A stretch of 64,000 nucleotides of DNA. Origin: Eledone cirrhosa. Lineage: Eukaryota. Each line of letters begins with the position of its first letter. Within the stretch, counting starts at the first letter, position 1. Where the stretch lies: contig OZ024750.1 of NCBI GenBank assembly GCA_964016885.1, positions 49,972,001 through 50,036,000 on the forward strand, given 5' to 3'. The notes beneath the pieces are model-generated. The model was given only the letters and a program-made list of their open reading frames with translations, had not been told where the DNA came from and ran no database searches. Shown here piece after piece: positions 14,216 through 54,309 of the stretch. The position numbers were made by a program, and so were the translations under genes.

Positions 14216-14440
14216 TAGCAGTGTATCCCGGTGTTGCACGGGTAAGACCATTGGTAGTAGCACCTCCACTGAGAAACGATTATTTGTGAGTGCCTATTGG
14301 GGAATTTTTGTTGTCTGAATTTTTTTATATTTCTATCTTCTTGTAATAACATTTTTTACACGACCAAAACCCACGCTAGAGTGAACTCTTCCATGGCTAT
14401 CTGCAATTTTACCCGCCCTGTTTTACTTGCCCTAATTGTA
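14215..14440 (-). mobile_element. Helitron 3' terminus fragment
   Basis: Minus strand CCCGTGCAACACCGGG hairpin plus CTAG|T at 14215-14245; inner boundary uncertain. Confidence 0.6.
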
Positions 14441-14444
14441 CCCA

Positions 14445-15160
14445 CATATTACAGTGAAGCTCTTGCTCGGAGTGGATTCGTCGATAATGTAGCATATACA
14501 GAGTACGAGAATAGACCTAGAAGAAATAGATCCCGACGTATTATATGGTATAACCCACGATATAATATGGAGGTGGCCACACCATTATCTATGATCTTTC
14601 TATCCCATATTACGAAGCATTTTCCTCCTACACATAAATATAGTAAATTTTTTAATAGAAATACTATTAAAATTTCTTACTCTACGAGTCCTAACCTTGC
14701 ACATAACATCACAGCTTCAAATTTAGCTAAACTACCTAGCCGTAGGAACACGTACAACCCTGTAGTTAGTACTAACTTTAATTGTAGGAATCGGGTTGAC
14801 TGCCCACTATCCGGGAAATGCCTCTCTAATAACATTGTCTACACATGTAAGGTTAAAACACCCACGTCCCGTAAGGCCTACATAGGGTTAACCGCCAATA
14901 GATTCAAGCAGCGTCTTTACATGCATACCCATTCTTTTCTTAACCCTTTAAGAAGGAATATGACGTCACTTACAGCTTATATCTGGAGTCTAAATGCCAA
15001 CCACACCCAATATAAGTTACACTGGGAGCTCCTAGCTAAGGCTAGATCGTATAACGGAAATAAAAGACCATGTGACCTCTGCGCCACTGAGGCCCTGGAA
15101 ATAATCTACACATAGGACCTCATCTTAAACAAAAAATTACTTATTTGCATAGGTAAGTAT
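14445..15160 (+). pseudogene. Penelope-like (Naiad-type) RT thumb plus GIY-YIG endonuclease fragment
   Basis: IIWYNP, FNRNTIKISYS, NCRNRVDCPLSGKCL, IVY...AYIG, FKQRLYMH, CDLCATE. Confidence 0.88.
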
Positions 15161-17548: not shown

Positions 17549-17904
17549 TGTCACAGTCAATCTATCTGTCTGTTTCTCACTCTAGCAATTTTATAAAATC
17601 AAAGAATAACAATATACACACACGCACACACACACATCAGCGTGTTGAAAAAATCCGATACGCTTCATCTTTCTCTTTCACTCTCTCTCTCTCTATATAT
17701 ATATATAGTAGAGATATACCGGAAATATTGAAGTGAATCTTTAAATAAGCAATACAATTATTTATATCTAATGAAGAGTTACGAAATTTAGTACAATACA
17801 TTATGTAATATTAATTTATTATTTATTCAAAGTATTCGAACTTATTTCAGAAACGGGATAAATAAGTATATTCCGGACGCAGTACCGCACTCGTTTATTT
17901 ATTA

Positions 17905-18230
17905 TAATTAAGATTGATTGCTGACGCATGTTTCGCTATTGAACATTTCAACGTTCGATCTGTATCGATCTGGAATCAAAAGATATGTGGACCTCTGCTG
18001 TGGTAATGGCATTACCACAACAGAGGTCCGACGAACTTTCGATTCTATAGTCAGACCAAATCAATACGGATCTAACAAGGAGCTGATTAATAGCGAAATA
18101 CGCGTCACCAATCAATATATATTATTATATTTACACACTGTTTAATTCTACACCTCGTTACTGATGTGAATCTAAACATCAAGTGCTCACCTGGGTGAAC
18201 CTACAGTAACCGCCCGTTACACACCCTCGA
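17905..18230. mobile_element. Fold-back PLE-type terminal repeat element with hammerhead motif
   Basis: Diverged inverted arms around a central palindrome (17989-18029); plus arm GGT CCGACGA...GC GAAA TACGC GTC ACC. Confidence 0.6.
18025..18109 (+). ncRNA. Type I hammerhead ribozyme-like motif (U4C core, long stem II)
   Basis: GGT/ACC stem I, CCGACGA, GAAA, GTC triplet; homologous to the canonical motif at 47789-47873. Confidence 0.5.
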
Positions 18231-18561: not shown

Positions 18562-20499
18562 CTATTTACTGATCTATAACATACTTGACCTCCTTTTCAA
18601 CCCAAGAGACACATAAAACATATGCGCATATTGATCAACAGTGGGGTGACATTCATCAAATGATATAGCATGGCAATTTACATATAAAGGTTACAGGATA
18701 AAAATAAAATAAAAACAAGAATGAAAATAAAGATAAACATGAAGCGTTGGCAGTCTATGAAGATAAAGCAAGAGGAAAGTTTAGAGTAGTCAGTGTATGA
18801 AACAGTCTCACGTGTAGCATGCACGCGTGTCTTATTTATACATGATTAGAGTGCGTCAGAATGATATTTGCAGGGTCAGGCAGTTGAAGCAGGCAATCGA
18901 TCTTATTATGTGGGCTGGATTATTAAGTCATTTATTCTCATACATCTGTATGATATACAGTCTCGGATGCAGGGAAACACCAAAATATCAAAAACTTTCC
19001 ACATACTATAAACCTTATTGTATCGTAGGCAAAGCCGTACCACTGTCTTCGCTCACACCACCACTCACATAATCCATGAGACGCAATATATATGGAGAAC
19101 ACTTGTCTATCGTATAATTTGCGGTGGTTCAGCATATAATCAAGCTATAAACCGTATCCAGTCGGTTCTTAATTAATAGATCATGCTGTCCAGATTCCGG
19201 AAGTGTCTGAATGACTAAGGGGAATTAATGCGTAAGGGGAGGTAACTAGCTAGTTATCTTAGTTAAATTATTATCCTAAACTACATTAATGGTGATTCAA
19301 ATACGTGCCTATCTTATGAAGTTATAACTAATTTCTAGAGTATGTTACCCATTTATAGGTTAGAGAGTTGTCCAATAAGAAGTACAAGGGTGTATATATT
19401 AGGATGATTACCATCCATTAAGGGGTGTCATATCTGAACGTTCTATAAGAGGAGTCAGACTCTCAAGTCACTGTTCCATGCAAATGTAATATAACAGTAG
19501 GACCTAGTATGGTCCCACTATTATTATATATGCCACCCGGTAGGCTCCGGGTCATTGCATGTCTGAATCTCCAGTAAATCTTCGGTATGGTCCCGAGATT
19601 CAATTTCTCATATAAAGGCACTAGTCTGGTCATCAAGCAATAGACAACCCCCGTCTCATATATAAATCGATTAAGTATCACATCTACAAGCCAGAGTGGA
19701 GTCTATTAATAGGTACTAAAGGAGTTCACATCAAGATGATTACAATCTGGAGATTAAATCTCTCATACCAGGGCACCTGTCTGGCCACCAAGCAATACAC
19801 AAACCCACGTCCCACATATAGATCAGGTATCCCATCCACAAGCTAGAGTGGAGTCCAGTAACAAGTACTAAAGGAGTTCGTATCATGATGACTACAATCC
19901 AACATGGGGTGCCACACCCGGCCAATCCATAAGAAGAGTCAGACTACATAATTAATTACATGGGTCTCACTATCAGTAATGGTCTTATTATCATACATGA
20001 CTCCCGGCTAGATTCAGGTCGTAGTATGACTGCATCGCCGGTAAGTACACCAGGGTGGTCCGGTGGCCGGTTCTTTCGTCAAAAGGTGCCGGTCAGGTCA
20101 CCAGGCAACACATATGCTCCTAACTCATGCATCTCCCGTGCATAATTCATTGAACTGATCGTTTACAGTATATATTCACATAACAATACGATTATCTATC
20201 TAATCATCAATCTATCTCTTGGTGGGAGTCCATGCACAGGACTATGTTATCGCAACCAGTACCGTGTCCCCAGTTTATACTAATCTTATATTTGTGCAAT
20301 GCAGAATAAGTAGTCCACGGTCGAGATATCAGAATTAGAGGTACAAGGGGGTATTCCCAGGGTAGGTGGTACTAAAATGCTGTCAGTATTATCTTTAGAG
20401 TATAGAAATGGGTGTGGATGTGAGGTGTAAGGTGTGCTACTGATGTTAATTGCTAGGGGTGGTGCCGGTTCCAGTCTGACATTATTATATATAGGGTTT

Positions 20500-22896
20500 A
20501 ATGTTTTGGAACGAGTGTCGGAAGTGGTGTTGGCAAGTTGCGAACACTTCTGATTTTTTATTAAGGAGAATATGTTTAGAGAAGATGATAGTATGGGTCT
20601 CTAGTAGACAGAGGTTACACAATTTATTAGGTGGTTTGTACGATGTTGCACTACCTACCACTTCCCATTTAAGTGTATATATTTTATTTTTAGTTTTTAG
20701 ATGGTGTATGTAGCTAGATAGTGAAGTGGAGTTGGCTAGACTGTATTTTTGAAAGAGTGGAGGTGCGAATTGTATCTAGTTTTGAAGCAGTTAGAAGTGG
20801 AGCCTATATAGGTTTCAGAAGAGCTGTTAGTTGTGACTGTACATGAGTATATGATATCCTTGGTTAAGCATTTTTTATCTAAAGGGCAGGTTCTACTTGA
20901 TCTACAGTTACAATTACTCTGGGTGCTAGTCTGCCGGTTACTATGCTATGTAGAAGTTTGGATGTTAACTATAGGGTTATGGTTATGTGGGTTGTGGTAC
21001 GCAGCGTTAATGTTTACACTTGAGTTATTACTATTATTTCCATTGATATTACGGTTATTTGTTATAATGTTACTTTGACTGTTATTCTGAATGTTATTTT
21101 GAAGGTTTATCGACCGTTGTGATTTAGTTTGTTGGAAGTAAGAATTAATTTGTCTTTTATTTGTACTAGCTATGTGGTATGCTAAGTTAGGCGTAGTAGA
21201 GTATGAGATCTTAATAGTGTTTTTGTTTAAAAGGCCGTGGTACCTGTGGCCGGATAGGAAGTGTTTATCTAGTAGTGAGAAGAAAGCCCTAGGAAGGTTG
21301 GTAGAGACGTTTAAATTGAAAGGAGGGTTGAAAAATGTATTATTTCTTCTTCTATTTCTGTTTTTTATGTCTGGTGATTTGTTTCCTTTAATGTCCCTAT
21401 GGTCATTTCTGTGGTGCGGGTTACTTTTGTTGTTACAATCCCTATTAGTGTGTGTGCAGTTGCTATTCCTATTATTAAATTTTCCCATGGACATGTTGTG
21501 TGAAATGATGTTGTAGCTATGTGTTTGTGTAGGTAGGAACTCTATTCCTGTATTATGGCCTGATCTAGCTAATGCCTGATTATAATACTGCGAGTTATTG
21601 TTAAATGTGTTTATGTCATAGGATAGATTAGAGATTCTATTAGATACTCCCTTAGAGATAGAGTTCAATATAGATTTAGGGTGTGTTAGACTTGGTATCT
21701 ACGTAGATGAGTTGTTCATTAGGTTTGTGGAAAGGTGCATATATCATTGAGTCTAAGTAGAGTGTGGCGTCTAGGAAGTTGACATGTTTGGTGTTTTTGT
21801 CCATGGTAATACTAAGGTTAAAGTTTTTGAATGTTTTGTGCAATAGTTTTCTAGTCCTTTCTATATTGAATTTTTTATAGTCTATAAGTAGAAGTGCATC
21901 GTCGCGATACAAACCACCGCTGAGGTACGGAAGTTCCCTTTGGATTAGGTTAAGTAAGTATAGGCCAACTAAATCACTGACCTGCGCCGAGTCACTAGAC
22001 CCCATAGTAATGTCGAAGTTGTTTTGCGTATCCTTGCGGGTCCATAATTGGTCTTCAAAGGTGATTATTGTTTTACGGGCCGCAAGTATGACTTCAATCT
22101 GGGGTCTAGTCAAGTCACTATTGTCCATGGCCATTATAAGTGCCTTATTTAGTAGGATAGGGGAAATAGAGGTGTAGTAAGAGTTGATATCAAATTGAAT
22201 AAATTTGTTATCCTTGTTATCTATGATATTTTTGAACCATTCAATCACTTCACCCGTATTTCCCCATTGTTTAAGGTAAATCTTGTGTATAATCTGTGGG
22301 TTGATTTTGTCTAGGATTTTTTTACTGATAATGCCAATGTCAGACCTGGAGGGGCAGATTAGTCTAATCGAGGGGTTGCTAATGAAGTCTACCTTATGGT
22401 CCTTCAGAGAGAATCTAGGGTGGTTTGGGGTGTAAGGTTGTGTATGTCTCTGGAGCCCTAGTTTGGATACTATATTATAGCCTTCCATATTAATATCTTC
22501 CAAGTTTTTCATAGTGGTTTTCTTGTAGCTTTTATGTAGTTCATTATATATAAACTTTCTATACGTATTATAATCTAGGCTGTATATGTTATTAGTTTTG
22601 TCGGCATGTACAAAAATGTTACTACTAGTTTTGAAGTCATTAATAGAGGTGCTAAGTTGTTTAAGAAGGTGTTGTTTTTATTATGGTGTTTTTTGTATTT
22701 AATGTTTTTAACTAGTTTAATTAGGTCGTTTTCGAAGTGGTTTAGTAGTGTGTTATGAGGGGGGCTTCTAAATGTTTTAAAGCCGAAGGAGTCAAATTTG
22801 TTGGTGTTATTATCCTTGCCAGATTTGTTTCTATCATAATGGAATGTCCTCCATCTCACTCTATTGATAAAGGAGTTTACACTGTTGATCAACAAC
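20500..22896 (-). pseudogene. PLE reverse transcriptase-GIY-YIG ORF, frameshifted
   Basis: ORF pieces 22575-22919, 21676-22512 and 20946-21668, plus endonuclease coding at 20500-20930. Confidence 0.88.
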
Positions 22897-22944
22897 AGAT
22901 TTACTGGAGATTCAGACATGTAATCTCTCTCTCTATATATATAT

Positions 22945-23811: not shown

Positions 23812-24183
23812 CAATGATATTAAATAAATGGAAACTATATTTATAAAACTATATTTATTTTATTATATATATTTCAAGGGTACCAAAACACTTTGGTACG
23901 CTTTCTTCAGATAAAATACAACTTTTGTTTTATAAATAGAGACATACTCAGGAAATCATAGCTGATCAGTTGGATATACTCTATCCAGAGAATATCCAAC
24001 TGTATTTTATCTGAAGAAAGCGTACCAAAGTATTTTGAAATAAATATGGTTTTATAAATATAGTTTCCATTTATTTAATATCTTTGAATATTTACTCCAG
24101 GAAAACGTTGTGTGCTCTGAATCATTTATAAACATTTATATTTATATTTGTCGGATTTCCAACAAATTAAAAACCTCCTTCTA

Positions 24184-24187
<4 letters not shown>
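23812..24187. mobile_element. Fold-back PLE-type element in (TA)n
   Basis: Inverted arms 23812-23920 / 24001-24086, then ~100-nt tail; hammerhead in the arms. Confidence 0.75.
23856..23918 (-). ncRNA. Type I hammerhead ribozyme
   Basis: TATTTTAT CTGAAGA AAGcGTACCAAA-gtgt-TTTGGTACcCTT GAAA TATAT ATA ATAAAATA: canonical core, 8-bp stem I. Confidence 0.82.
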
Positions 24188-24245
<58 letters not shown>

Positions 24246-24439
24246 GATAAATCTACCAAAAGTTTACGGTAGTGTCCAATCCGTATGAAGAACTCAATGT
24301 AATCCGGATATCATGAAAAGAAGAGATGCATTCAAAAATCACTTCCAGTGAAAGATAAACGGAAAACAGAGTCAAGATAAATTATTAAAAAAATAATGAA
24401 TAAACAAAGAAACAGTTCCTTATATTAAACAAAAAAAGT

Positions 24440-24580
24440 TCATTATTTTACGATCGTTTCTAGGACATATATGTGTTAGAATTGGTATGCATATTCAAAA
24501 GATCTATGTACAAAATTATACAAACTATCAGAGGGAATATACATACCTTCACATATATATGCTGTCTTCAGAAATAATGA
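24440..24580 (-). ncRNA. Type I hammerhead ribozyme with extended stem II
   Basis: Reverse complement of 27450-27590. Confidence 0.72.
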
Positions 24581-25009
24581 TGCTTGTTTATTGATAATAA
24601 CAACAATTCAATATAATAGGGCTGTTTGGGAACAGATTTTGAATAGACCAATGAAATAAAGATTGAGATACATAAAAATCTATCAAGAAAATACAGCTAG
24701 GTGTGTATATATGTATGTAAATACGCTCACAGATGTGCATAAATGTGTATGCTCATATGTATACGTATAGTGAAAAAGTGTATGTAAATATAAAATTTAG
24801 AGCTAATGTATCTGTATGTCTGTAATCAACAAACGGAATAGATACATCATAAGTATATGAATATTGAGGCACTCACATAAACACGCCCACACACACTTAC
24901 ATTTAGATGCGGAAGTAAAAGAGGTAAGGGAGTATACTAATTAAAGGAAAGTGTCAATCTCGACATACTTATAAAAATGTATCAATAAATTAGAAATAAA
25001 ATTTTATTT

Positions 25010-25650
25010 TAATATTATAAACCTAATTAATATACAATTTAGAAATTAATATATAAATTAATTTTAATTTAGTTAACCTATAATTTTAATTTAGTTAACT
25101 TATAATTAAAATTCTAATACAGATGAAATGCAAAATATCGTGTAATCATAAACTGAGAAAAACTTTTAAATATATACCTAATTAGTATACACTTTAGAAA
25201 TTAATATATAGATTAATTTTAATTTAGTTAACCTATAATTAAAATTCTACTATAGATAAAATACAAAATTCTGCTTTAAATATTATAAACCTAATTAATA
25301 TATCATTTTTAATTTAGTTAACCTATAATTAATAATCTACTACCGATGAACTACTTAATTTGGCTTTCCCTCTTACAAAATTCATTTCCTAAAATTGATA
25401 CCATCAAGTAAATATATGTAATTATTTTTAATTTAGTTAAGCTATAATTAATACTCTACTACTGTTTAACTTCAAAATTCCGCTTTAAATATTATAAACC
25501 TAATTAGTATACACCTTAGAAATTAATATATTAACTATTTTTATTTTAGTTAATCTATAATTAATATTCTACTTATATTAAAATACATAATTTGGCTTTC
25601 CTTCTTACAAATACCATTTCCTAAAACTGATACCACTAAGTAAACACATA
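25010..25650. repeat. AT-rich degenerate tandem repeats
   Basis: TTAATTTTAATTTAGTTAACCTATAATTAA and TAAACCTAATTAATATA recur several times. Confidence 0.7.
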
Positions 25651-25836
25651 TAAAGCTTTAACTGCAGGTTAGTATTCTATGTTCCTTGAAACCTATATAT
25701 TTACTATTTCCCACTAATAAATTTAATCCCCACCCCCCTATAATTATATGTATATGTAAGCGTGGATGTGAGTATGTATATGTAAGTGTGTATGTATGTA
25801 TGTGTGTTTGTATGTGAGTATAAAAATACATATGTA

Positions 25837-25879
<43 letters not shown>

Positions 25880-25881
<2 letters not shown>

Positions 25882-26490
25882 TGGCTGCCAACTCGTTTTC
25901 GAGTACGGCCACTACTTTATATCCATGTAGGAGAACCCCTACCGAAGCGCTGAACGAGTGTGACTTTTTAGTCCAGCCAGCGACTTGAAAACTCTGGTAC
26001 AAACACTACACTTGTGACAATTATTGACACATAGTGCTGGGGCCATGGTACCATGTGAGGACAAGTGCAGAGAGATCTCCAGATATAAAGCAATGCCTGT
26101 GCCGTGAAGCTTTTATAGTGAGCAAAGGCACTGCACAAAGCCAGTCCCACTCTCTTAACCAAGATGATATTTACCAAAAAGAAGAACAAGTCAACATCAT
26201 TGGATACCATCAGGGTTGCAGGTGTTATATCAGAGTTTTCCTTCTCCTAGAATTCTGCCTTGACAAAGGCTAAGGGGTCATCTCTCCCGGTGATTCTGGA
26301 TGGCCATTGACTCTTAAGAGCTCCTTTGCCCTTTGACAGGTTTTGTTTTTAGTCCTGCAGGATGTCCAAAATCACCCTCCTCACCAAGAAACCTTGGTGG
26401 GGTTGCCAGTTTAGTCGCCAACGACCCGACCATGAGACAGGTTGTACTGGGATACATGTTACCAGTAGCACCAACTGGTGACCTGACATA
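25880..26490 (-). mobile_element. Internally deleted RTE derivative (5' UTR-like part joined to 3' end)
   Basis: CTAGGAGAAGGAAAACTCTGA, typical of RTE/BovB 5' UTRs, lies within ~400 nt of C2H2 coding and the RTE 3' terminus. Confidence 0.6.
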
Positions 26491-26518
26491 ATATATATAT
26501 ATATATATATATATACCT

Positions 26519-26559
<41 letters not shown>

Positions 26560-26683
26560 GTAGAGATGTGTATATGTATGTGTATATATGTGTATATGTG
26601 TCTGACTGTGTATATATGTGTGTGTATGTCTATATACATGTATGTTTGAGTGTGTGTGTGTGTGTGGTTGTATATATACATGG

Positions 26684-26736
<53 letters not shown>

Positions 26737-27449
26737 TGTATATATATATATGTATGGGTATATGTTTTACTTATTTTTATGCGTGTGCATACAAACAGGT
26801 CAATATGCGTGAGTGTAAGTATGTGTATGTGTGTGTGTATGTATGTACGTATCGAACGTATGGATGTGTAAATGTGCGTGTGTATATAAGCATGTATATT
26901 TTATGTCTCTCTTTTATGTTTTTTATGTTTCTTTTGTGAGACATGCGTGTCTGTGTTTGTATGTAGCACCCCCCTTTTTGTCTTTTTTTGTCTTCTTTTC
27001 TTGAGTTTTTTCCTTCTATAAAAATTTTTTTTATTTCTAATTTATTGATACATTTTTATAAGTATGTCGAGATTGACACTTTCCTTTAATTACTATACTC
27101 CCTTACCTCTTTTACTTCCGCATCTAAATGTAATTGTGTGTGGGCGTGTTTATGTGAGCGCCTCAATATTCATATACTTATGATGTATCTATTCCGTCTG
27201 TTGATTACAGACATACAGATACATTAGCCCTAAATGTTATATTTACATACACTTTTTCACTATACGTATACATATGAGCATACACATTTATGCACATCTG
27301 TGAGCGTATTTACATACATATATACACACCTAACTGTATTTTCTTGATAGATTTTTATGTATCTCAATCTTTATTTCATTGGTCTATTCAAAATCTGTTC
27401 CCAAACAGACCTATTATATTGAATTGTTGTTATTATCAATAAACAAGCA

Positions 27450-27590
27450 TCATTATTTCTGAAGACAGCATATATATGTGAAGGTATGTATATTCTCTCT
27501 GATAGTTTGTATAATTTTGTACATAGATCTTTTGAATATGCATACCAATTCTAACACATATATGTCCTAGAAACGATCGTAAAATAATGA
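27450..27590 (+). ncRNA. Type I hammerhead ribozyme with extended stem II
   Basis: TCATTATTT CTGAAGA [~104 nt, CATATATATGTG.../...CACATATATG] GAAAC GATC GTA AAATAATGA; 9-bp stem I. Confidence 0.75.
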
Positions 27591-27744
27591 ACTTTTTTTG
27601 TTTAACATAAGGAACTGTTTCTTTGTTTATTCATTATTTTTTTAATAATTTATATATATATATATATATACTTAGGTTAATAGGAGTTAGGTATTGTATA
27701 CCCGTGTCCCATTAAGGTATTGGCAGCATAATACTTATATATAT

Positions 27745-28500
27745 ATATAAACAAGAAATAGATTGACATATATATATATAAAATAAACATATGAAACAAT
27801 CACAGGGAATAATTTGTAAAGTGTGTAAGCTCACATAGCTAGGTAGTAACTAATTAAAGTTTAACTAGAACTTCAAATATAGATACCTTTTAAAATGATT
27901 AATCTCCTTTGTATATATTTCTTTAAATAAAAAATATATTTCACCATTTAATCGGTAAAAGATTTGACTACTGTGATTTATCGATTAATTAGTGAAATAT
28001 ATTTTTTATTTAAAAATATATATACAAAGGAGATTAATCATTTTAAAATGTATCTATATTTGAAGTTCTATTTAAACTTTAATTAGTTACCTACCTAGGT
28101 ATGGGAGCTTACACACTTTACAAATATATATATTTCTTTAAATAAAAAATATATTTCACCAATTAATCGGTAAATGATTTGACTACTGTGATTTACCGTT
28201 TAATTAGTGGAATATATTTTTTATTTAAAAATATATATACAAAGGAGATTAATCATTTTAAAATGTATCTATATTTGAAGTTCTAGTTAAACTTTAATTA
28301 GTTACCTACCTAGGTATGGGAGCTTACACACTTCACAAATATTCCATGCGATTGTTTCATGTGTTTATTTTATATATATATATATGTCAATCTATTTCTA
28401 GTTGATATAAAATGCTCGGATCTATTCATTGGAATCTTTGGGCTTATTCTGCAGTGGATATGGCGCATGTCCCTCAGACATGACACTCTTAATTTAATTT

Positions 28501-28502
<2 letters not shown>
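27745..28502. repeat. Fold-back element with duplicated loop and right arm
   Basis: 27745-27958 is inverted relative to 27977-28125 and 28192-28408; ~215-bp direct duplication; tail to 28502. Confidence 0.75.
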
Positions 28503-28551
<49 letters not shown>

Positions 28552-28556
<5 letters not shown>

Positions 28557-28645
28557 ATATTAATAAATGGAAACTATATTTATAAAACCATAATTGTTTT
28601 TTATATATATTTCAAGGGCGACCAAATTATGGTGCGCTTTCATCA
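28552..28645 (-). mobile_element. Single truncated arm of the 23812 family
   Basis: Homologous to 23812-23910; begins at the hammerhead core TGATGA; (TA)n on both sides. Confidence 0.65.
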
Positions 28646-28667
28646 TATATATATATATATATATATA

Positions 28668-28952
28668 TAAAGAAAAAGAGATGAAATCGAAAATGCAACT
28701 GGAGTCTTATTTTTTTTTAAAGATGTGAATGGATATTTAAGAGATGTGAGAAAAACCACAGACCCTCCATCTCAACTCACCTCTTGAAAAGCAGAAGAAC
28801 TGCGAAACCGGTAAAGGAACCAAATAAATATATATATTTAAAAAAAAAAAATAAGACTCCAGTTGCATTTTCGATTTCATCTCTTTTTCTTTATACTTTC
28901 ACTCGTGTAGGACACCTCGGTTATTTTTCATTTTGTAAAAAAACCCTCACTA

Positions 28953-28956
<4 letters not shown>
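28668..28956. mobile_element. Fold-back element in (TA)n with variant hammerhead
   Basis: ~50-bp inverted arms 28668-28720 / 28838-28894, then ~60-nt tail. Confidence 0.7.
28780..28817 (+). ncRNA. Minimal hammerhead motif, U3-A8 core
   Basis: CCTC TTGAAAA GCAG-aagaa-CTGC GAAAC CG GTA AAGG; one stem I mismatch. Confidence 0.55.
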
Positions 28957-29019
<63 letters not shown>

Positions 29020-29254
29020 ATATTTAGAAACACACAGATACATGCGGACACACACATATACATGAATGCATCCACACCCAACCGTGAGTTAAGGGTGCCA
29101 ACCTCACCGATGTTGCTCAATGAATGACTGGGACAGACCAATCCGGTTGAACCAGACTGAACCAGTATCAGAGTTAAAATTACATTATGAAGAGAGAAGA
29201 AACATTTAGATATAATTAGTAATAAAATGTATCATACCTAAACTGCTCCTAGCT

Positions 29255-29344
29255 TCCTCGACTACGTAGTTTCGTGGCATAAACAAAAACAATACATCAT
29301 AAAGATATAGAGTCCCTGCGAGGTCTGCCGACTTATCAAGAGGA
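29255..29344 (-). ncRNA. Type I hammerhead ribozyme, U3-A8 core
   Basis: Reverse complement of 29785-29874. Confidence 0.68.
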
Positions 29345-29784
29345 TACCTCATTTTACTAGTCTTAAGAACGCGTCTACACGACGTGAGAAAGAATCCCAA
29401 AAGGCGGAGGGGGAGATAGTCACGCGATATAACAGTCGAGAAACAGAGCTAAGCCTCTTATAACCCCGAAGAACATACCACAGAGTGTGTCCGCATGTAT
29501 CTGTGTGTTTCTAAATATATTGTTAATAACTCCCTCTGGTTGAGTAATCTTTGAAGTGTGGTGACTGCTGGAAAGCTGCCATTACTCATACTCCTCGCCT
29601 CCTTCACCACCTCTTCTACGGCTTCGATATGAATACCCCTCCGCCTCTGTGGTATTTTCTTCGGGGTTATAAGAGGCTTAGCTCTGTTTCTCGACCCTTA
29701 TATCGCGTGACTATCTCCCCCTCCGCCTTTAAGATTCTTTCTCACGTCGTGTAGACGCGTTCTTGAGACTAGTAGAATGAGGTA

Positions 29785-29874
29785 TCCTCTTGATAAGTCG
29801 GCAGACCTCGCAGGGACTCTATATCTTTATGATGTATTGTTTTTGTTTATGCCACGAAACTACGTAGTCGAGGA
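29785..29874 (+). ncRNA. Type I hammerhead ribozyme, U3-A8 core
   Basis: TCCTC TTGATAA GTcGGCA...TGCCAC GAAAC TACGTA GTC GAGGA. Confidence 0.7.
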
Positions 29875-29946
29875 ATCTAGGAGCAGTTTAGGTATGATAC
29901 ATTTTATTACTAATTATATCTAAATGTTTCTTCTCTCTTCATAATG

Positions 29947-29995
<49 letters not shown>

Positions 29996-29996
<1 letters not shown>

Positions 29997-30151
29997 CGAA
30001 GGAAATGTGGTAAGGAACCAGGTGGACCATAACGCACCAAAGTACTCAATACTTAGGGTAGTAGAGTGGGTAATAGGAACAAGACCCCGACGGCTGAGCT
30101 CAAGCCGTTTCGACGGCTTGAGCTCAGCCGTCGGTGTCTTACTTGTTCCTA
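29996..30151. mobile_element. Miniature fold-back element (3' half of a hammerhead plus tail)
   Basis: Hairpin 30073-30151; minus strand GAAA CGGCTTGAGCTCAGCCG TC GGG; (TA)n on both sides. Confidence 0.6.
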
Positions 30152-30152
30152 T

Positions 30153-30247
<95 letters not shown>

Positions 30248-30255
30248 TATATATA

Positions 30256-30340
<85 letters not shown>
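30150..30340. repeat. (TA)n microsatellite
   Basis: Direct reading; one of dozens of TA tracts. Confidence 0.95.
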
Positions 30341-30343
<3 letters not shown>

Positions 30344-30424
30344 GATATACCCAATTTGAAACTGGTTAGACCTTTACATAAGAGAGTACTCGATACTTGA
30401 TGTAGTAGCGTATGGCTATATTAT

Positions 30425-30614
30425 AATTGTTTCTACTTTTGGCACAAGGCCAGCAATTACCCAGTGCATTACTGGTACTTTATTTTATCGACCCCGTAAG
30501 GATGAATGGCAAAGTTAACCTCGGCGGTATTTGAACTCAGGATGGCTAGGGCCGTAACTATATTCGTCAAAGCATGGCTTCCGACCCTCTACCGATACTG
30601 CTAATCCACCGCCC
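30425..30614 (-). mobile_element. Meta-type SINE
   Basis: Full-length copy; 16-bp TSD ATGGCTATATTATAAT. Confidence 0.92.
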
Positions 30615-30778
30615 ATGGCTATATTATAATGAGTCAGCTACCGACGGGTGACTTATTGCCGTTTCTTCGAGCAAGGTTACGGAGACTGTCCGCGGGCAAT
30701 TAAATATTTATAGTCCAGTAATGTAGTACAATGATGAGTGCTGTTATATCCTACGAATATATATATATATATATATAT

Positions 30779-30904
30779 ACATTGAGCTATTTATCTTACT
30801 GGTAATAAGGTAGTAATAAATTACTGTCTTTCACTATTTAGGATTTAAAATATATATAACTATAAAAAGGTTTTAGTATATACATAACCATAAATAGTAT
30901 CCTT

Positions 30905-30912
<8 letters not shown>
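30779..30912 (+). mobile_element. Isolated 3' terminus of the PLE family at 18302 / 50662
   Basis: Reverse complement of 18302-18440; (TA)n on both sides. Confidence 0.8.
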
Positions 30913-30959
<47 letters not shown>

Positions 30960-30963
<4 letters not shown>

Positions 30964-31343
30964 ATATAAGATCAAAAGATGGTTAAAGGAGTTCCATGTA
31001 TTTTATTATGCGCATTTCAAAAACAAACATCATCATGCAATAATATTTGTGTTTTCATCAGATAAAACAGGAGAACATGATAAACATCAGATAAAACAGG
31101 AGAACTATCCACAAGTGTTTTTTAGCCTTCATATCATGTTCTCCTGTTTTATCTGTTGAAAACACAAATATTATTGCATGATGATGTTTGTTTTTGACAT
31201 GCGCATAATAAAATACATGGAACTCCTTTAACCATCTTTTGATCTTATATTATGTATACTCCAGTCCTACAAACTGTAGAGTGCTTCTTATCCGATATCT
31301 GCATTGCTTTATTGTACTACAATAAAACTCACCTCCTACATTA
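30960..31343. mobile_element. Fold-back PLE-type element in (TA)n
   Basis: ~120-bp inverted arms 30960-31082 / 31132-31253, then ~90-nt tail. Confidence 0.8.
31001..31067 (-). ncRNA. Type I hammerhead ribozyme
   Basis: TTTTAT CTGATGA AAACACAAATATTATTG.../...TGATGATGTTTGTTTTT GAAA TGCGC ATA ATAAAA; the plus-arm copy (31147-31213) has two core mutations. Confidence 0.82.
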
Positions 31344-31364
31344 TATATATATATATATATATAG

Positions 31365-31710
31365 GAAAATCCCGTCGAAGCCGCATTGGGTAAAGTATTA
31401 CCTCGAAGGTAGTAAACAGGTGTTTCAAGCGTGGTGCTAAACAGTTTAGCACTAGTAAACTGTTGCTACCACACCATCTTCAACAACAATGTACTCAAAC
31501 CTTCTTACAGAACCACACCCATATTCGCACAAATCCTTAAACACCGCCAAAATCGATTCTAAAAATTCCGCTCTGACCTCATTGAGGTGGAATCCACGCT
31601 GTGTAATTGCACTGACAAAACCCATTGTCAATTAAACAACAAATGCCGGCTACGGAAGTACGTATACAAATGCAATGCCAAGGAGGGAAAACACCATCAC
31701 CACCTACATC
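31365..31710 (+). pseudogene. PLE (Naiad-type) fragment
   Basis: FNNNVLKPSY-like segment and CNCTDKTHCQLNNKCRLRKYVYKC. Confidence 0.6.
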
Positions 31711-32549: not shown

Positions 32550-33950
32550 AAACGGGTTTCGACGCGGGGAGATAGCAAGACTCAAAACACGCGGAAGCAG
32601 AACCTCCCATATCTGCACAGCGAGCGGTAGGAGAAATAGCTGTAAGGATATCGGACGGATAACAGAAAATGCGGAACAACCTAGAGAGACTGTAGGGTGA
32701 ATGACAACTTTACAGCACCAGAAACGGAAACAGATAATACCAGTAGGAAAGGATATAATGCCATCAAATCTCCACATCATAGTTTAGAAAATATACACAG
32801 AAAATCGGACCTGCATGGTAGATCTAGGAGTAGTTGAAATATGAGGATGGAAGGAACAGAAACACACGACAGGAGTAAACAGCATGGTCCTATACCCACA
32901 ACACATAGAAGACACAATAGGAGTAGATCTAAGGACGTACGTGGTTCAATGCACCGTACTCTAAACTCGTACGTACTAACATACCCGGCATATTCTTTAG
33001 GTCATTATATGAGTGTTTCCGGGCTACTCACAAATACCACAAACTTTTCAAGCGCCACACGGTAAAGTTCTCATGTTCTACTGTACCCAACATGGGTGAC
33101 TATATAGCCCAAACCAATTCAGTGAAGATGAGAAATATTGAACGTCGCAAACAACAGACGTGTGATATATCCGGCCTAGCTGGGAGGGCACTTAAAGACA
33201 CCGGCAACACATACGACCCACAATACTGTCATTAGACCCACAGTGGGCCGGGACCTGGGCAAACAGCCGACGCTAAACTTGAATGTGGAATCCACTACGC
33301 CCGCCGACCGCCATAGAGGAAGTGAAGTACATGTCGAAACGAGATCCCATCATTACATCAAGACCAGGCAATTTCACACCCGAACCTGTAACTGCCGCAA
33401 TAATACACAGTGCCTTCTCCAAGGGAAGTGCTTAACGAAGGACATCATGTATACATTTGTGGTTGAGACACACAACACAAGGACCAACTACATCGGTGCA
33501 ACATTCACGACCTTTAAGTCGAGGATGTACAACCATACGAATTCTTTCACGGACCGGGCAAAAGACACTCCACAAAACTGGGGGATTTAATCTGGTGGTT
33601 GACAGATAGTGACACGGAATACAAGCTCTACTGGAGTATAGTAAAACGTGCCGCTGCTTATTCCGCCGGTGAAGGACGGTGTAGACTATGTCTGGCAAGA
33701 GATATGGAGATAGTCAAATTATAAAATAATGCGGTCAACCTAAAATCTGAGGTCATCATGTAATGCAGGTACCAACGGAATTGTACCTTTTCTGCACTGG
33801 AATTTGCGGAAAACAGTGGAGTACACCGCATGCCGGAGCGCGTAATATAGAGGGACGTGTTCATGCGTCTCTCCTTTGGTTTACCTCACATAGCTCAGAC
33901 CGTGTCTATCTGGCGTCCGACATCTCCAGGTTAAGGACGTCATGGTAACA
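32550..33950 (+). mobile_element. PLE (Naiad-type) GIY-YIG region, degenerate
   Basis: TCNCRNNTQCLLQGKCLTKDIMY...NYIGAT...FKSRMYNHTNSF, then CRLCLA; boundaries approximate. Confidence 0.75.
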
Positions 33951-34250: not shown

Positions 34251-34929
34251 AGGCCGATTATTTCTATTTCGATATATACATATATACATACATATACATA
34301 CATATTTAAATACATATACACATATATACATATACATACATACAATGGCGACCGTTGTGGTCAGTGTCCGATAATCGGACGTGTGTAATTACGGCTTACA
34401 TGAAGGAAACATACCATAAATTGGAAAAGGTTGAGTTACATTACACGGTAAGATTACATACAATGATTCTACATAAGTGTATGAACTGTAAGTGTGTTGT
34501 AAAACATCTATTTATATGAACGATACATACACTTATGATATATGAACGATACATACACTTTAACATATAAATGTTATATTACATTTGTAAAGAAATATGC
34601 AAGTAACGTTTTCGATTCTGAAACAAAAACATAAGTATTTGAATTGTGAATATGTTTTAGAACACTTATTTATATGAATGACACATAAACTTTAACATAT
34701 AAATACAGCGTTGTTATATTATATTACATTCATAAAGAAATATACTAAGTAACGTTTTTTGTTGTTGTTTTTTTTTTGTTCTCGATTCAAATGAATCAAG
34801 AACAACGTTTAAAATAAAGTTGTATAATTAAAAACTAACTGAAAAGAAATATTACCCAAGCTGGGAATAACTTTAAATTTGATTCTGACAGAACTATGTC
34901 GAAACATTTAAAGAAGATCATCGACTATT

Positions 34930-45927: not shown

Positions 45928-47167
45928 GTATAACAAGTTATCGTTATGGGTAATCCAGAGGCTGTGAGTATTCTGTGTCGGGGATAGTTTTAACGTACGG
46001 CTTTGTTTGACTCAACAAGATGTTTCCATAATTAGGCAGCGAATTCGCGAGAATTTCTATGTAGGTTCTACTTGGAGTAATAATAGTGAAAGATTGAAGA
46101 ATAACATAGTCGTCTATACAAGGGGCTTTATTTCAAGTATTAACAATTGTTTCCTTGATCAGGTGTGTCTAGAGGCCTAGAGGCCGCTAATCGCTCGAAG
46201 TTGCGTCATTCGATCTCCAGTACAGTTTTTACCTCTGATCAAATCCTGAGAATACGAAAGAACTCACACATGGCAAGGTATATATAGAGAAATAGTGTAG
46301 AAACAAACCAATAACAGTAATAATAAAATATAATGATAAATAGGTAAAGAAGTTACACATGTAACAATTAAACAAAGTAAGAAAAGAAAAAGAAGTAAGA
46401 ATAAGTAAAAGCATATAAGTACAGATACTATATTTGATAATAGTGGTGGTGCTGAGTAAGTGTATGTATAAGGATGTGGCGGTGGATGTAGTGCCAACAT
46501 GAAAAGCAATATTCGAAACATACATAGATGTGTGTAGAGAATAAGAGGTAGTAACAAATGACAAATAAAGAAAAAAGCAATAAATTATGAATTAAGTGAG
46601 AGATACTAGTATGTGACCTAGGGCTAAGGATGGATGGTGAAGGGGGGGGGTTTTGATATGTGTATGAGGTATTTTTTCCTGCTGAATATCTTATCTTACT
46701 GGGGTTGATGTGGTTTCAGGGAGAGAGAGTAATAGAAATGATAGGAGATTTATGATCTAGTGAGCAGTCAGTTAGTTGACAGCTAATAACAATGTGGTGG
46801 TATGTATTGCATACGTTAACATCCCGGTGGTTCAGTTCTAATTTTGGGATTGTTGGGTCGAATCACGATGGTTTCAAATTTGTGAACTTGGTAGCTGTTT
46901 TGTGCCTACATAAAATTGATCTTTCTATTTTTCTGTTAAGCAGCATCTTAACGTAACTTAAAATATGGAATAGCTCCATATTCCAAAGTCTGCAGTGGGA
47001 CATTCCATTGTAGTAGGCCCTTGCTCCCGATAATTTTGACCAGCTAATCCAACATCGAGCGATTAGCGACCTCTAGACTCGCCTGACCAATAAAACAATT
47101 GTTAATACTTGAAATAAAGCCTCTTGTGTACAGCGGACCACCAGGTTATTCTTCAATCTTTCACTAT
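45928..47167. mobile_element. Fold-back PLE remnant including the ORF C-terminus
   Basis: Inverted arms 46083-46200 / 47054-47167; minus strand encodes LLNRKIERSILCRH near 46900-46945. Confidence 0.7.
46137..46255 (-). ncRNA. Degenerate hammerhead motif (G5C)
   Basis: GTATT CTCAGGA tTTGATCAG...CTGATCAAg GAAAC AATT GTT AATAC. Confidence 0.5.
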
Positions 47168-47609: not shown

Positions 47610-47788
47610 ACTGCCATAGCTATGGCTTTAGATCTTAAGAGAATCACATATGGTTAACTTGAAAGGTTATATGCTGGAATGCTGCTTACACTGTGTCATA
47701 GCTGAACGTCTCATAAAATGGAATTCTAGTAATATTGTTGAAGATATATCTTCAGACGACAATTCATTCTTTCATTACCATTAAAAGG

Positions 47789-47873
47789 GGTCTGACGAGC
47801 CGTGGATTACAGAGTCGGGCTAGATCGATACAGATCGAATCTTGAGCTGATCAGTGGCGAAACGCGCGTCACC
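47789..47873 (+). ncRNA. Type I hammerhead ribozyme
   Basis: GGT CTGACGA GCC...GGC GAAAC GCGC GTC ACC; (TA)n follows ~50 nt later. Confidence 0.75.
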
Positions 47874-47921
47874 AACCAATAAACGTAATAAAGGAGTAAC
47901 CAACCGTTCTTGTTTTATTTT

Positions 47922-47983
<62 letters not shown>

Positions 47984-49030: not shown

Positions 49031-49108
<78 letters not shown>

Positions 49109-49150
49109 TTCAAAATATTAACAAATATAGACACTCGTGTGATCAAGTAT

Positions 49151-49215
49151 ATTTTATTATACTTATTTCAGAGGTACTGAGGTATCTTTAACAGTACGTC
49201 CTCATCAGATAAAAT
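49151..49215 (-). ncRNA. Type I hammerhead ribozyme
   Basis: ATTTTAT CTGATGA GGAcGTAC...GTACCTCT GAAA TAAGT ATA ATAAAAT. Confidence 0.72.
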
Positions 49216-49293
49216 TTGTTAAAATATGGTTAAAATTTAGTCATGGCAGAATGTTAACCATCTACTTAGTCAAGGTATGTCAAGCATCATCTT

Positions 49294-49358
49294 ATTCTAT
49301 CTGATGAGGACGTACAGTTGAAGTTAGCTCAATACCTCTGAAATGTGTATAATAAAAT
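49294..49358 (+). ncRNA. Type I hammerhead ribozyme
   Basis: ATTCTAT CTGATGA GGACGTAC...ATACCTCT GAAA TGTGT ATA ATAAAAT. Confidence 0.7.
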
Positions 49359-49498
49359 ATACTTGATCACACGAATGTCTATATTTGTTAATATTTTGAA
49401 ATAATATTAATAACTCCGGAAAACCCGAACTGTGGAGTGCTTCTAATCTATTGTATACCTTTATTCATTGATTTATTTATTGAACCCTGTTTAACCTT

Positions 49499-49559
<61 letters not shown>

Positions 49560-50885: not shown

Positions 50886-51489
50886 TTTTTTTATGTTTGC
50901 ACATATAATTGACCTCCCAGTCAACGCAAGAGATATACAGATACATATATATATATATTGATGTACAGTGTGGAGCGGCATATATTATACTATACTATAT
51001 TTGTATAGTAATTCAAATTAAAATCAAAATTAAAATCAAAATTTAAATTTAAAATACATGCGACAGATAACACAGATAATGCAGGAGAGTAGTTCAATAA
51101 TCATATCTAGTATATAGTGTATGCGTTAGTCATACATGGGGCATGCAAATGTATCTCATTTATATAAGAGTATTGTGTGGTAAGGTATTAAATGTAATAC
51201 AAGCACTTTAAGCGGGTAAGCAAGAATATTATGGTGGTTGCAGTGGGTGGGTATTTTTTGCACAGATCGAATTAGTATGTGTGCAGAAAAAGAAAGTTAT
51301 AGTTTTCACATCCACCACCATGTTCCCATCCAGAAAGAGGAAGTTATAGTTTTCACATTCATCACATATGTTACGATGTATTCGTATTGAATGTTTGTTG
51401 TAGTAAAGGATTGTAACGTATTGAAGCTCAGTGATATATAATCCATATTTATATGCGAAAATTTACAGCGGTTTAATATCCGATTAATA

Positions 51490-52950
51490 TCTGATTTGGT
51501 CGGCCTATACCTACTAAATGAAATCGATAATGATCTACCATACCTCAACGGTGGTTTATACCGCGATGATGCACTACTCCTTATAGACTATAACAAATGT
51601 AATATAGAGAGAACTAGGAAACTATTACATAAAACTTTCAAAAACTATAACCTAAGTATCACCATGAACAAAAACACTAAAAACGTTAGCTTCCTGGATG
51701 CTACTCGCTACCTAGACTCTAAAATATATGCATCATTTCATAAACCTAACGAAAAACTAATTTACGTAGATACTAAGTCTAACCACCCTAGATCAATATT
51801 AAACTCTATCACTAAAGGAATATTCAATAGAATCTCTAAACTAGCTTATAACGAAACCCTATTTAGCAATAATTCACAATACTATAATCAGACATTAGCT
51901 AAATCAGGTCATAATAATGAGATTGAGTTTCTACCTATAAAAACACATAGTTACAACATTATTTCTCACAATATGACCATGAGAAAAAATAGTAATAAGG
52001 ATAATAACCACACTCATACTAATACGAAGGGTAGCATCAAACGTAACTCGCACCAGAGAAGACACCAAAATACTATAAACGGAAACACCTCAATAGATAT
52101 AAAAACAAAGATAGAAGAAGAAATAATACATTTTTCAACCCCCCTGTCAATCTAAACGTCTCTACGAACCTACATAAGGCTTTCTTCTCAATCCTGGATA
52201 AAAACTTCCCATTTGGCCACAAGTACCATGGTCTTATAAATAAAAACACCAATAAAATCTCCTACTCTACCACACCTAACATAGCATACCACATAGCTAG
52301 TAGCAAAAAAAGAAAGATTAGTACTTACTTTCAACAGACTAAAACACAGCAGGAGGTAAACTTTCAAAACAACATAATATCTACAAACCCTGATATCAAT
52401 GGTAATAATAGTAATAACACTAATGCAATCAATAGCAATAGGAACGACAAGCTTCATAGCCCTAATACAATACCTAGCAACCAGATTTCTGCACAACATA
52501 ATAACAGACAGGATAACATCCAAAATAAATGTAACTGTATATCTAATAGAACCTGCCCTTTAGGTAAAACCTGCTTAATCAAGAACATCATTTACTCATG
52601 TACGGTCAGAACTAGCAACTCTTCTGAAACTTATATAGGCTCTACTTCGAACTGCTTCAAAACAAGATACAACTCACATCACCATTCTTTCAAAAAACAC
52701 AATCTAGCCAACTACACTTCACTATCTAGCTACATACTCTATCTGAAAACTAGGAATAGATCATATATACTTCAATGGGAAGTAGTAGGTAGGGCTGCAT
52801 CGTATAAACCACCTAATACATTATGTAACCTATGTCTACTAGAGACCCATACTATAATCTTTTCGAATCTTAACCTCCTTAATAAAAAGTCGGAAGTGTT
52901 TGCGTCATGCCAACACCGCTTCCGACACTCTTTCCAAAACTTTAAACCTA
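51490..52950 (+). pseudogene. PLE RT-GIY-YIG ORF fragment
   Basis: DLVGLY, YRDD, VSFLD, CNC..CPL..CL, IIY..YIG, CNLCLLE, LNKKSE..CQH. Confidence 0.88.
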
Positions 52951-54309
52951 GCAATGTCAGATTTGAACTCATCACCACTTTTAACACTGTACCTCAAGGG
53001 CTTGCCTTCCACCAGTACACCACACTCTCTGATCCACCCTTTCTATATATATCTTTATACCCTAGAAATATCCATATAATCACCACCTTTTAATACAATT
53101 ACGTTGGATTACTTATAATTATATAGGGATTGAAATATAATACAGTTTATATAAACTTTAAATATTAGATACAACAATGAATTGTATATGCATTTGTAAT
53201 TAAAATTATAGAGTAATAACATATGAGTAATTTATTAACATAAGAGATTTCACTAACTTAAAATTATAGAGTAATAACATTGGGTATATATATGAGTAAT
53301 TTATTAACATAAGAGATTTCACTAAGTTATATGTAATATGGAACAATGAATTATATATGAATTATATATGCATTTATAACTAAGTGGATAAATTAATGAC
53401 ATTGTATATGGGGGATACATTTGATTACTCAAGAGATGTATCTGATGTTATCATGCAAACAAAAATACGCTGCTCCATAGCTTACCTAAGGTTAGGTAGA
53501 TGAAAATCTAATTGAACCTTTAATATGTTTTGTGACCAGACTGTATTTAAAGTGAATTTGATAAATATATATAACAATTTGGGTGGGTAATTCAATTATA
53601 GCACTATATAATAAGGAGTAAACAACTTCCTATAGATACCTTTAATGCATTATGAGAGAATAGACTGTATTTGAAATTAAATATAAATATATAACCCTTT
53701 ATATAAGGAACTCAAATTAAGCACCATATAATGTATGTTGGAACAATGAATTTAGTTATGAGAATCAGCTAGTTACCTCCCCTTACGCATTAGCTCCCCT
53801 TAATTACATACCTACTTCCGGATATTAAACCGCTGTAAATTCTCGCATATACATATGTATTATATATCACTGAGTTCAATACGTTACAATCCTTTACTAC
53901 AACAAACATTCAATACGAATACGTCGTAACATATGTGGTGAATGTGAAAACTATAACTTCCTCTTTCTGGATGTGAAAATGGTGGTGGATGTGAAAACTA
54001 TAACTTTCTTTTTTTTCTCACATACTAATTCAATCTGTACAAAAAATAACCCCCCACTGCAACCACGAAAATACTCTTGCTTACCCGCTTAAAGTGCGTG
54101 TATTACATGTAATACCTTGCCACACAATACTCTTATATAAATGAGACACATTTGCATGCCCCAAGTATGACTAACGCATACACAATCTACTAGATCTGAT
54201 TATTGAACTACTCTCCTGCATTATCTGTGTTATCTGTCGCATGTATTTTAAATTTAAATTTTGATTTTAATTTTAATTTTGATTTTAAATTTAAATTTAA
54301 ATGTTGATT

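Follow-up and report, generated by a model that had tools for sequence, protein, structure and literature searches.

The closest described systems belong to the PLEs and to the retrozymes. According to the available text of three descriptions, EN+ PLEs carry an inverted, 5′-truncated copy adjoining their 5′ end, and a tail on one side only (PMC8557442; PMC3846280; PMC8969392). Minimal hammerhead ribozymes of PLEs were described in 2014, with a C3-G8 or U3-A8 core, a palindromic helix III and an arrangement in opposite-strand pairs 100-700 bp apart (PMC4209133). Within the PLEs, the Hydra clade is characterized by RWK-like, DKT and CxCX5C motifs, a C-terminal GIY-YIG domain, hammerheads and insertion into (TA)n (PMC8557442, available text). 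The protein of an anole PLE nicks and extends both target strands and prefers AT-rich DNA; it starts reverse transcription internally, at two sites, and mainly on uncleaved RNA (PMC11167929). On the other hand, a broad definition of retrozymes requires two or more tandem units in succession, with a complete type I hammerhead, canonical or minimal, in every unit; families span 51-972 bp and are treated as PLE derivatives (bioRxiv 10.64898/2026.07.22.740005). Canonical non-LTR retrozymes combine a canonical hammerhead, loop 1-loop 2 contacts, head-to-tail arrays of 170-400 nt and demonstrated circles (PMC7229834, available text). The origin of the tandem and inverted structures of PLEs, and of their tails, is named as an open problem in the available text of PMC8557442.

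Here, we describe an element at 29015-29950 of a 64-kb stretch of Eledone cirrhosa DNA, hereafter the window. Like EN+ PLEs, it has a head-to-head inverted 5′-truncated pLTR, a one-sided extension, a type I minimal hammerhead and a (TA)n target. Unlike them, it is without an ORF, its extension measures 164 nt compared with 30-40 nt in the available published text (PMC8557442; PMC3846280), and its direct arm reaches 39 nt back past the start of the other arm. Because layout, hammerhead type and fixed end sites match, we judge it a typical PLE insertion. With a probability of roughly 0.55, it is a head-to-head “inverted pLTR plus tail” insertion copied from a compact non-autonomous RNA of the order B-X-A-Y-B (segments in Table 1), with a period of about 591 nt.

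Layout of the element, hammerheads and setting

The element is organized as (TA)n <-[B X A][A Y B]-> (TA)n, with two arms reading outward from position 29485. Both the minus arm (B-X-A, 471 nt) and the plus arm (A-Y-B, 466 nt) end at (TA)n. The two copies of A are identical in reverse complement (E 2e-14), and those of B match in 298/307 columns when aligned to the reverse complement, leaving nine differences (E 2e-146). In PLE terms, B is the pLTR and X+A the tail. The 5′ start of B is the truncation point of the minus arm only, and not a proven junction. Overall, the arms give a unit A-Y-B-X of 591 nt with a GC content of 0.43. The segment coordinates and the A-Y-B-X-A order proposed in an earlier note on this DNA were thus recovered, as were its single hammerhead per unit and its lack of a convincing ORF.

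Table 1 Coordinates of the features of the element (positions in the window)
Feature	Position	Strand	Remarks
(TA)n target, left flank	28957-29014		TA runs; tract common to the tail end of the neighbouring PLE insertion 28670-28956
A, minus-arm copy, 3′ end of long arm	29015-29053	-	39/39 identical to 29485-29523
Predicted X/A hairpin	29029-29090	-	MFE and centroid; coordinates counted off that structure
X, 125 nt	29054-29178	-	tail beyond pLTR end = X+A, 164 nt
ACTC, site 1 (B/X)	29171-29174	-	4 nt past pLTR end
B′, inverted 5′-truncated pLTR copy	29179-29485	-	97% to 29645-29950
Type I minimal hammerhead, minus copy	29255-29344	-	runs 29339 to 29260, cleavage after 29260
Head-to-head junction	29485		1-nt microhomology; one base common to both arms
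A, plus-arm copy, 5′ end of short arm	29485-29523	+	39-nt overlap with the start of the other arm
Y, single-copy body, 121 nt	29524-29644	+	ACTC 29529-29532, complement GAGT 29542-29545 = site 2 (A/Y)
B, direct pLTR copy	29645-29950	+	ends at site 1, adjoining (TA)n
Type I minimal hammerhead, plus copy	29785-29874	+	core box 29790-29796, GUC cleavage after 29869
(TA)n target, right flank	29949-29994		TA runs; tract common to the tail end of the neighbouring insertion 29996-30149

A further reading takes A as a generic simple-sequence repeat and the layout as a product of chance or an assembly fold-back artefact. A is indeed TG/TA-rich, and it matches simple repeats weakly (E 0.018 and 0.21). 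However, its perfect copies stand exactly at the end of one arm and at the start of the other, the arms are permuted and 3% different, unlike a fold-back chimera, and seven sister insertions have the same layout. We therefore regard such an origin as barely credible.

Each B carries one hammerhead. The plus copy is built of a 5-bp helix I, a U3-A8 core box and a helix II of 6 bp that starts with G10.1-C11.1, contains one bulge and is closed by a 46-nt hairpin loop. It also has GAAA at 29856-29859 and a palindromic helix III of 10 nt at 29859-29868, and its cleavage site lies 81 nt from the arm end. Hence, the U3-A8 core, the G10.1-C11.1 pair, the short helix I and the palindromic helix III of the type I minimal class are all present. 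In the active-type fold, 14/14 pairs are standard and the energy, -22.1 kcal/mol, is 1.1 kcal/mol above the minimum of -23.2 kcal/mol. A scan for hammerheads with palindromic helix III gave five matches in the window, compared with a mean of 0.075 in 40 simulated windows; with stricter settings, which retain this motif, 0/40 simulated windows gave a match. Folded on its own, the hammerhead region is unremarkable (z -0.49). The predicted fold is without the usual, though not defining, 5′ unpaired base of PLE hammerheads and has a bulge within helix II instead; a variant hammerhead of D. virilis has a helix II bulge plus the usual 5′ unpaired base (PMC4209133). Rfam returned no match at gathering score over the whole window and no hammerhead among the 21 weak matches in 28600-31400. 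Weak miRNA and viral-UTR matches in that interval arise from hairpins and TA repeats.

On the 3′ side of the hammerhead, at 29890-29945 (+) and in the copy running into X (-), splice-donor-like, branch-point-like and pyrimidine-rich motifs are visible by eye. PLEs retain introns near the pLTR. Splicing from the donor-like motif to the first AG gives no long frame, and the stretch 29890-29945 is also predicted as a long hairpin.

Within the 591-nt unit, the longest ATG frame has 48 codons. Pfam gave no family for 3/3 short frames, and phmmer no match for a 68-codon frame spanning Y-B. When 120 related RT proteins were compared by tblastn with this region, Y and B included, the best E was 1.2. 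The ORF with RT and GIY-YIG endonuclease that distinguishes an autonomous PLE was thus not found here. Since the element is without an ORF and yet has the testable features of a PLE insertion, it is a non-autonomous or deleted PLE copy. X, Y and B have no further copy in the window, where the other matches to the element, all weak (E 3e-6 to 0.2), lie beside or within simple repeats. A 23-nt stretch of the hammerhead had no exact match in prokaryotic genome contigs and none in plasmids.

The window is repeat-rich, with Helitron and LINE remnants and a multi-copy 190-nt repeat that we take to be an octopus SINE. It also holds four ORF-bearing PLE remnants, frameshifted or truncated, at 20497-22940 (-), 51304-52946 (+), 14375-15106 (+) and 32939-33790 (+). 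RWR, DKT, YRDD and CxCX5C motifs are present, spread over the frameshifted frames of three remnants. Pfam gave no relevant family for the four, and the best of 556 protein matches for one of them was from Argonauta hians, at 46% identity. Judged from motifs rather than from a tree, the remnants appear to match the Hydra clade. A Hydra-clade PLE is plausibly the partner of the element, with which this clade shares (TA)n insertion and hammerheads (PMC8557442, available text). No nucleotide or protein link was detected between the element and the ORF-bearing PLEs of the window, and its pLTR has no match to that of an autonomous PLE there. In Octopus vulgaris, recently active PLE families are described, and the main text, as far as available, leaves hammerheads unmentioned (PMC13282606).

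Several other structures were noted around the element. A single (TA)n array at 28500-31360 contains a stack of five or more PLE-type insertions and a SINE-like repeat, with flanking tracts in common. At 27781-28370 lies a complex palindrome with a 215-nt direct repeat and (TA)n on both sides, in which our scans gave no hammerhead. Short tandem arrays are found at 19595-19899, 25016-25653, 34471-34758 and 57991-58396, with periods of about 155, 155, 158 and 113 nt, respectively; two of the four sit within PLE insertions.

Sister insertions and the ACTC motif at arm ends

Inverted pairs were selected in which one arm ends at most 10 nt from (TA)n and the other runs 50-170 nt further, also to (TA)n. 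Eight of the 24 local inverted pairs in the window follow this rule, namely the present element and seven sisters (23812-24185, 24243-27650, 28670-28956, 29996-30149, 30964-31341, 45929-47164 and 49106-49501). All eight show hammerhead features: among the sisters, the hammerhead is complete in four, mismatched in helix I in one, degenerate in its core in another and reduced to its 3′ half in the last. The sister tails measure 61-151 nt, as compared to 164 nt here. The head-to-head layout, which the earlier note had considered striking, is therefore the standard inverted-pLTR structure of PLEs, present in seven other places of the window.

In 7/7 sisters, an ACTC starts in the long arm at most 14 nt from the point where BLAST ends the short arm; measured from the extended end, the distance is 2-8 nt. 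The background frequency of ACTC is 4.4% (5452/122600), and other 4-mers reach at most 4/7. These counts are to be read knowing that the 50-170-nt rule was fixed after ACTC had already been noticed in several elements, and that 3/7 sisters have related tails, so that they are not independent. Relaxing the rule, so that one arm lies at (TA)n and the other over 30 nt away from it, adds three pairs lacking ACTC, which brings the count to 7/10 pairs other than the present element. In addition, there are two lone arms (at 28553 and 48390) whose last base is the one at which the short arms of their relatives end, which indicates that the end site recurs.

In the present element, ACTC begins at position 5 of X and at position 6 of Y, in agreement with the previous observation that each arm ends 4-5 nt before an ACTC of the other arm. 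Position 29015, where the minus arm ends, would be a second start site of reverse transcription. At 4/9 sites (3/7 sisters), GAGT occurs within 30 nt after ACTC, for a background of 36/400, which suggests that the two form a small hairpin. Such a hairpin would agree with the stem-loop at which the anole PLE initiates (PMC11167929). On balance, the PLEs of this genome probably start reverse transcription at fixed ACTC-marked sites, often at the foot of a small hairpin, that act as a template boundary. This end rule was not found in the mostly open-access literature searched.

Other inverted pairs and hammerheads of the window deserve mention. At 51012-51482 and 53819-54288, inverted arms of 471 nt (94%) surround a PLE ORF, with ACTA in place of ACTC; this pair falls outside the selection rule, our scans gave no hammerhead in it and its right end enters Helitron-like sequence. 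An ORF-bearing PLE with a truncated 5′ end has a 27-nt inverted arm there (19555-19581 and 22897-22923), and the match in the long arm stops just before a perfect 6-bp hairpin starting with ACCC, not ACTC. The U3-A8-type hammerhead at 28784-28813 has the box UUGAAAA, and the first pair of its helix I is mismatched. At 30073-30149, the hammerhead 3′ half has a long self-contained helix III with a 6-bp stem and a 7-nt loop, unlike the short palindrome of its neighbours. A second hammerhead family, with a CUGACGA core, a long helix II and a palindromic helix III, is represented at 17900-18129 and 47773-47925; the 17.9-kb copy is inverted, but has neither (TA)n at its arm ends nor a nearby ACTC.

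Template of the insertion

The tail end is repeated at the centre of this element only (seen in 0/7 sisters), and 0/200 shuffles reach the score of this match. The plus arm thereby exposes sequence lying beyond the end of the long arm, that is, Y, in which ACTC starts at position 6 and GAGT starts 13 nt further on. For a random junction, the chance of ACTC at this position is about 2%. Because Y starts with the ACTC signature seen after the short-arm ends of 7/7 sisters, the A-Y join is probably native, as judged from sequence. Furthermore, X and A pair in a long predicted sense-strand hairpin that 0/40 shuffled versions of X equal, and the 3′ strand of its 12-bp helix begins at the first base of A. 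Considering both the ACTC/GAGT start of Y and the X-A pairing, B-X-A-Y is very probably a single native sequence, in which 164 nt separate the two ACTC-marked sites.

Structure is confined to the hammerhead-sense strand: the tail (X with A) folds at z -2.2 in sense and +0.1 in antisense, and the left arm at z -3.8 and -0.5, respectively, with 2/43 background segments lower. This strand bias argues against an inverted arm made by self-priming, that is, by fold-back on an antisense template, instead of priming from both target strands. This was proposed for rotifer PLEs, to account for head-to-head structures whose junctions are palindromic (PMC3846280, available text), and the point where the plus arm stops does coincide exactly with the top of the 12-bp X/A helix. 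However, the junction here has a 1-nt overlap and no palindrome, and in the sense orientation each arm ends shortly before an ACTC, which makes this origin very unlikely.

The Y-B join, which would close the unit, is less secure. The end of Y with the start of B resembles the interior of B over 59 columns (16/2000 shuffles), in windows picked after inspection, and the similarity of Y alone to the B interior is not significant (144/500 shuffles). In addition, the real Y folds no better than shuffled Y within the unit (17/40). The Y-B join may thus be a deletion or a template jump. Accordingly, the same insertion mechanism could have acted on a longer, possibly autonomous, PLE RNA, with Y brought next to B by a template jump or by a later internal deletion. 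Sister arms do show internal deletions and short duplications (at the centres of 23812-24185 and 30964-31341), and internally deleted PLE derivatives are on record (PMC3846280, available text); that Y adds nothing to the fold points the same way. On the other side, Y and B contain no coding remnant detectable by tblastn or phmmer, and the faint internal duplication straddles the Y/B boundary. We consider a longer template possible, yet unlikely. Of the closed unit claimed in the earlier note, the A-Y half therefore probably stands, while the Y-B closure carries less weight. The 591-nt period itself is a reconstruction from one copy.

X and Y were also considered as diverged paralogues, which was not significant (347/500 shuffles); over the first 30 nt, the comparison was borderline (49/5000 window segments, 303/5000 shuffles). 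Similarly, Y could not be assigned as the tail of a sister family, with no significant pair in 9 comparisons (best 34/300).

With a compact B-X-A-Y-B RNA as the preferred template, the insertion could have proceeded as follows, by analogy with PLE biochemistry. A PLE RT/GIY-YIG protein acting in trans, plausibly of the Hydra clade, would nick both (TA)n strands. One nick would prime at site 1, at the end of the downstream B and about 4 nt before ACTC, and B, Y and A would be copied. The other would prime at site 2, at the end of A and about 5 nt before the second ACTC, and A, X and the upstream B would be copied. The plus-arm cDNA would have run 39 nt beyond site 2, and the two cDNAs would then have been joined head to head at the 1-nt microhomology, leaving A as a 39-nt overlap. 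The template needed is 898 nt long, or 1.52 units, and corresponds to the ordinary linear PLE RNA of the form pLTR-body-pLTR. At its stopping point, the plus arm is no more than 39 nt away from the start of the other arm, which fits a single RNA; on a 591-nt unit, we estimate the chance of so close a stop at about 13% (78/591). The template was most likely an uncleaved linear RNA, although its two hammerheads could in principle pair via the palindromic helix III and release a 591-nt monomer.

Such a monomer raises the question of a circular template, one of the two forms (“circular or tandem”) proposed in the earlier note. Cleavage and ligation of a dimer would give a circular 591-nt RNA, around which two reverse transcriptases would have copied from both ACTC sites. 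Several features are compatible with it: both arms cross the cleavage site and add up to more than one unit (937 nt for 591 nt), their lengths are almost the same, the palindromic helix III forms a 10-bp duplex of -12.9 kcal/mol and the presumed circle folds at z -4.1. Moreover, circular PLE templates have been proposed (PMC4209133), and retrozyme circles are demonstrated in other animals (PMC7229834, available text). However, each of these points is equally true of an uncleaved linear B-X-A-Y-B RNA, and the z of -4.1 comes from local hairpins of the left arm, to which Y contributes nothing.

A circle also has a single B, whereas the copies of B differ at 9/307 columns. Eight of these nine differences, which include two double substitutions, fall within the first 133 columns, a weak and post hoc clustering (P 0.03-0.07). 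The differences lean towards two distinct repeats, but weakly, because sister arms differ by 0-6% anyway (0/49, 2/119, 10/622 and 29/471). A-to-I editing was considered as their source: 4/8 substitutions are A/G, a number too small for a judgement, and a sister pair is biased oppositely. Published experiments also speak against a circle: minimal PLE hammerheads cleave poorly in vitro (PMC4209133), 8/9 Xenopus dimers tested failed to cleave (bioRxiv 10.64898/2026.07.22.740005) and the anole PLE had no reads ending at the cleavage site (PMC11167929). Finally, no tandem of more than 1.5 units is present here, and intact hammerheads are usual in PLE copies. A circular template is therefore improbable, and a little more so is the full scheme in which ACTC-site initiation combines with dimeric RT priming from both target strands on one hammerhead-processed circular 591-nt RNA. 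A circle is possible, but nothing at this locus requires it and a linear tandem explains the data equally well. Hence, the tandem part of the earlier proposal fits well, while the circle is not required, a linear B-X-A-Y-B being all that is needed; its wider claim, that a non-coding unit with a hammerhead was mobilised by PLE machinery and left a footprint of its reverse transcription here, is supported.

Relation to other elements and significance

Besides EN+ PLEs, the linear B-X-A-Y-B source and its insertion can be compared with four other systems. Like the Chlamys MRC1-like non-autonomous PLE derivatives, the element is short, non-coding and pLTR-derived (PMC8557442, available text). It shares with canonical non-LTR retrozymes a type I hammerhead, a GC content below 45%, the lack of an ORF and a proposed mobilisation by PLEs (PMC7229834, available text). 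In contrast to them, it has a U3-A8 variant with a 46-nt loop II, a reconstructed unit of 591 nt and no array in the window. Two features that define this class, the canonical hammerhead and the 170-400-nt tandem array, are thus absent from the locus, where the hammerhead is of the PLE minimal type and the arms are inverted. As regards retrozymes in the broad sense, the proposed source would have two type I hammerheads 591 nt apart, inside the 51-972 bp range, whereas the locus is inverted, not tandem, with no second copy or array in the window. Therefore the proposed source B-X-A-Y-B, with its 1.52 units, and not the locus itself, could fit the broad 2026 definition.

The insertion also resembles L1 twin priming, where both target ends prime on one RNA and give an inverted 5′ piece with a microhomology join (PMC2912911, available text). 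Unlike in L1, there is no poly(A) here, and both priming sites would be internal and motif-marked. In addition, the template would contain direct repeats, so that the inversion resembles a circular permutation.

As it stands, the element itself is an ordinary product of known PLE biology. Its value is that one arm reads past the start of the other, making both putative priming sites visible together with their downstream context, and that both sites carry the ACTC signature of seven sister ends. A circular template, if true, would tie the formation of PLE tandems to hammerhead-made circular RNA, and the locus would preserve a direct trace, in the genome, of a PLE template that was circular, a retrozyme-like circle with a minimal U3-A8 hammerhead. 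The ACTC end rule may be a more interesting lead than the element, and the conserved end motif the most useful result. If it holds genome-wide, this rule would provide a testable cis-signal for the internal initiation of PLEs and an easy means of finding PLE boundaries.
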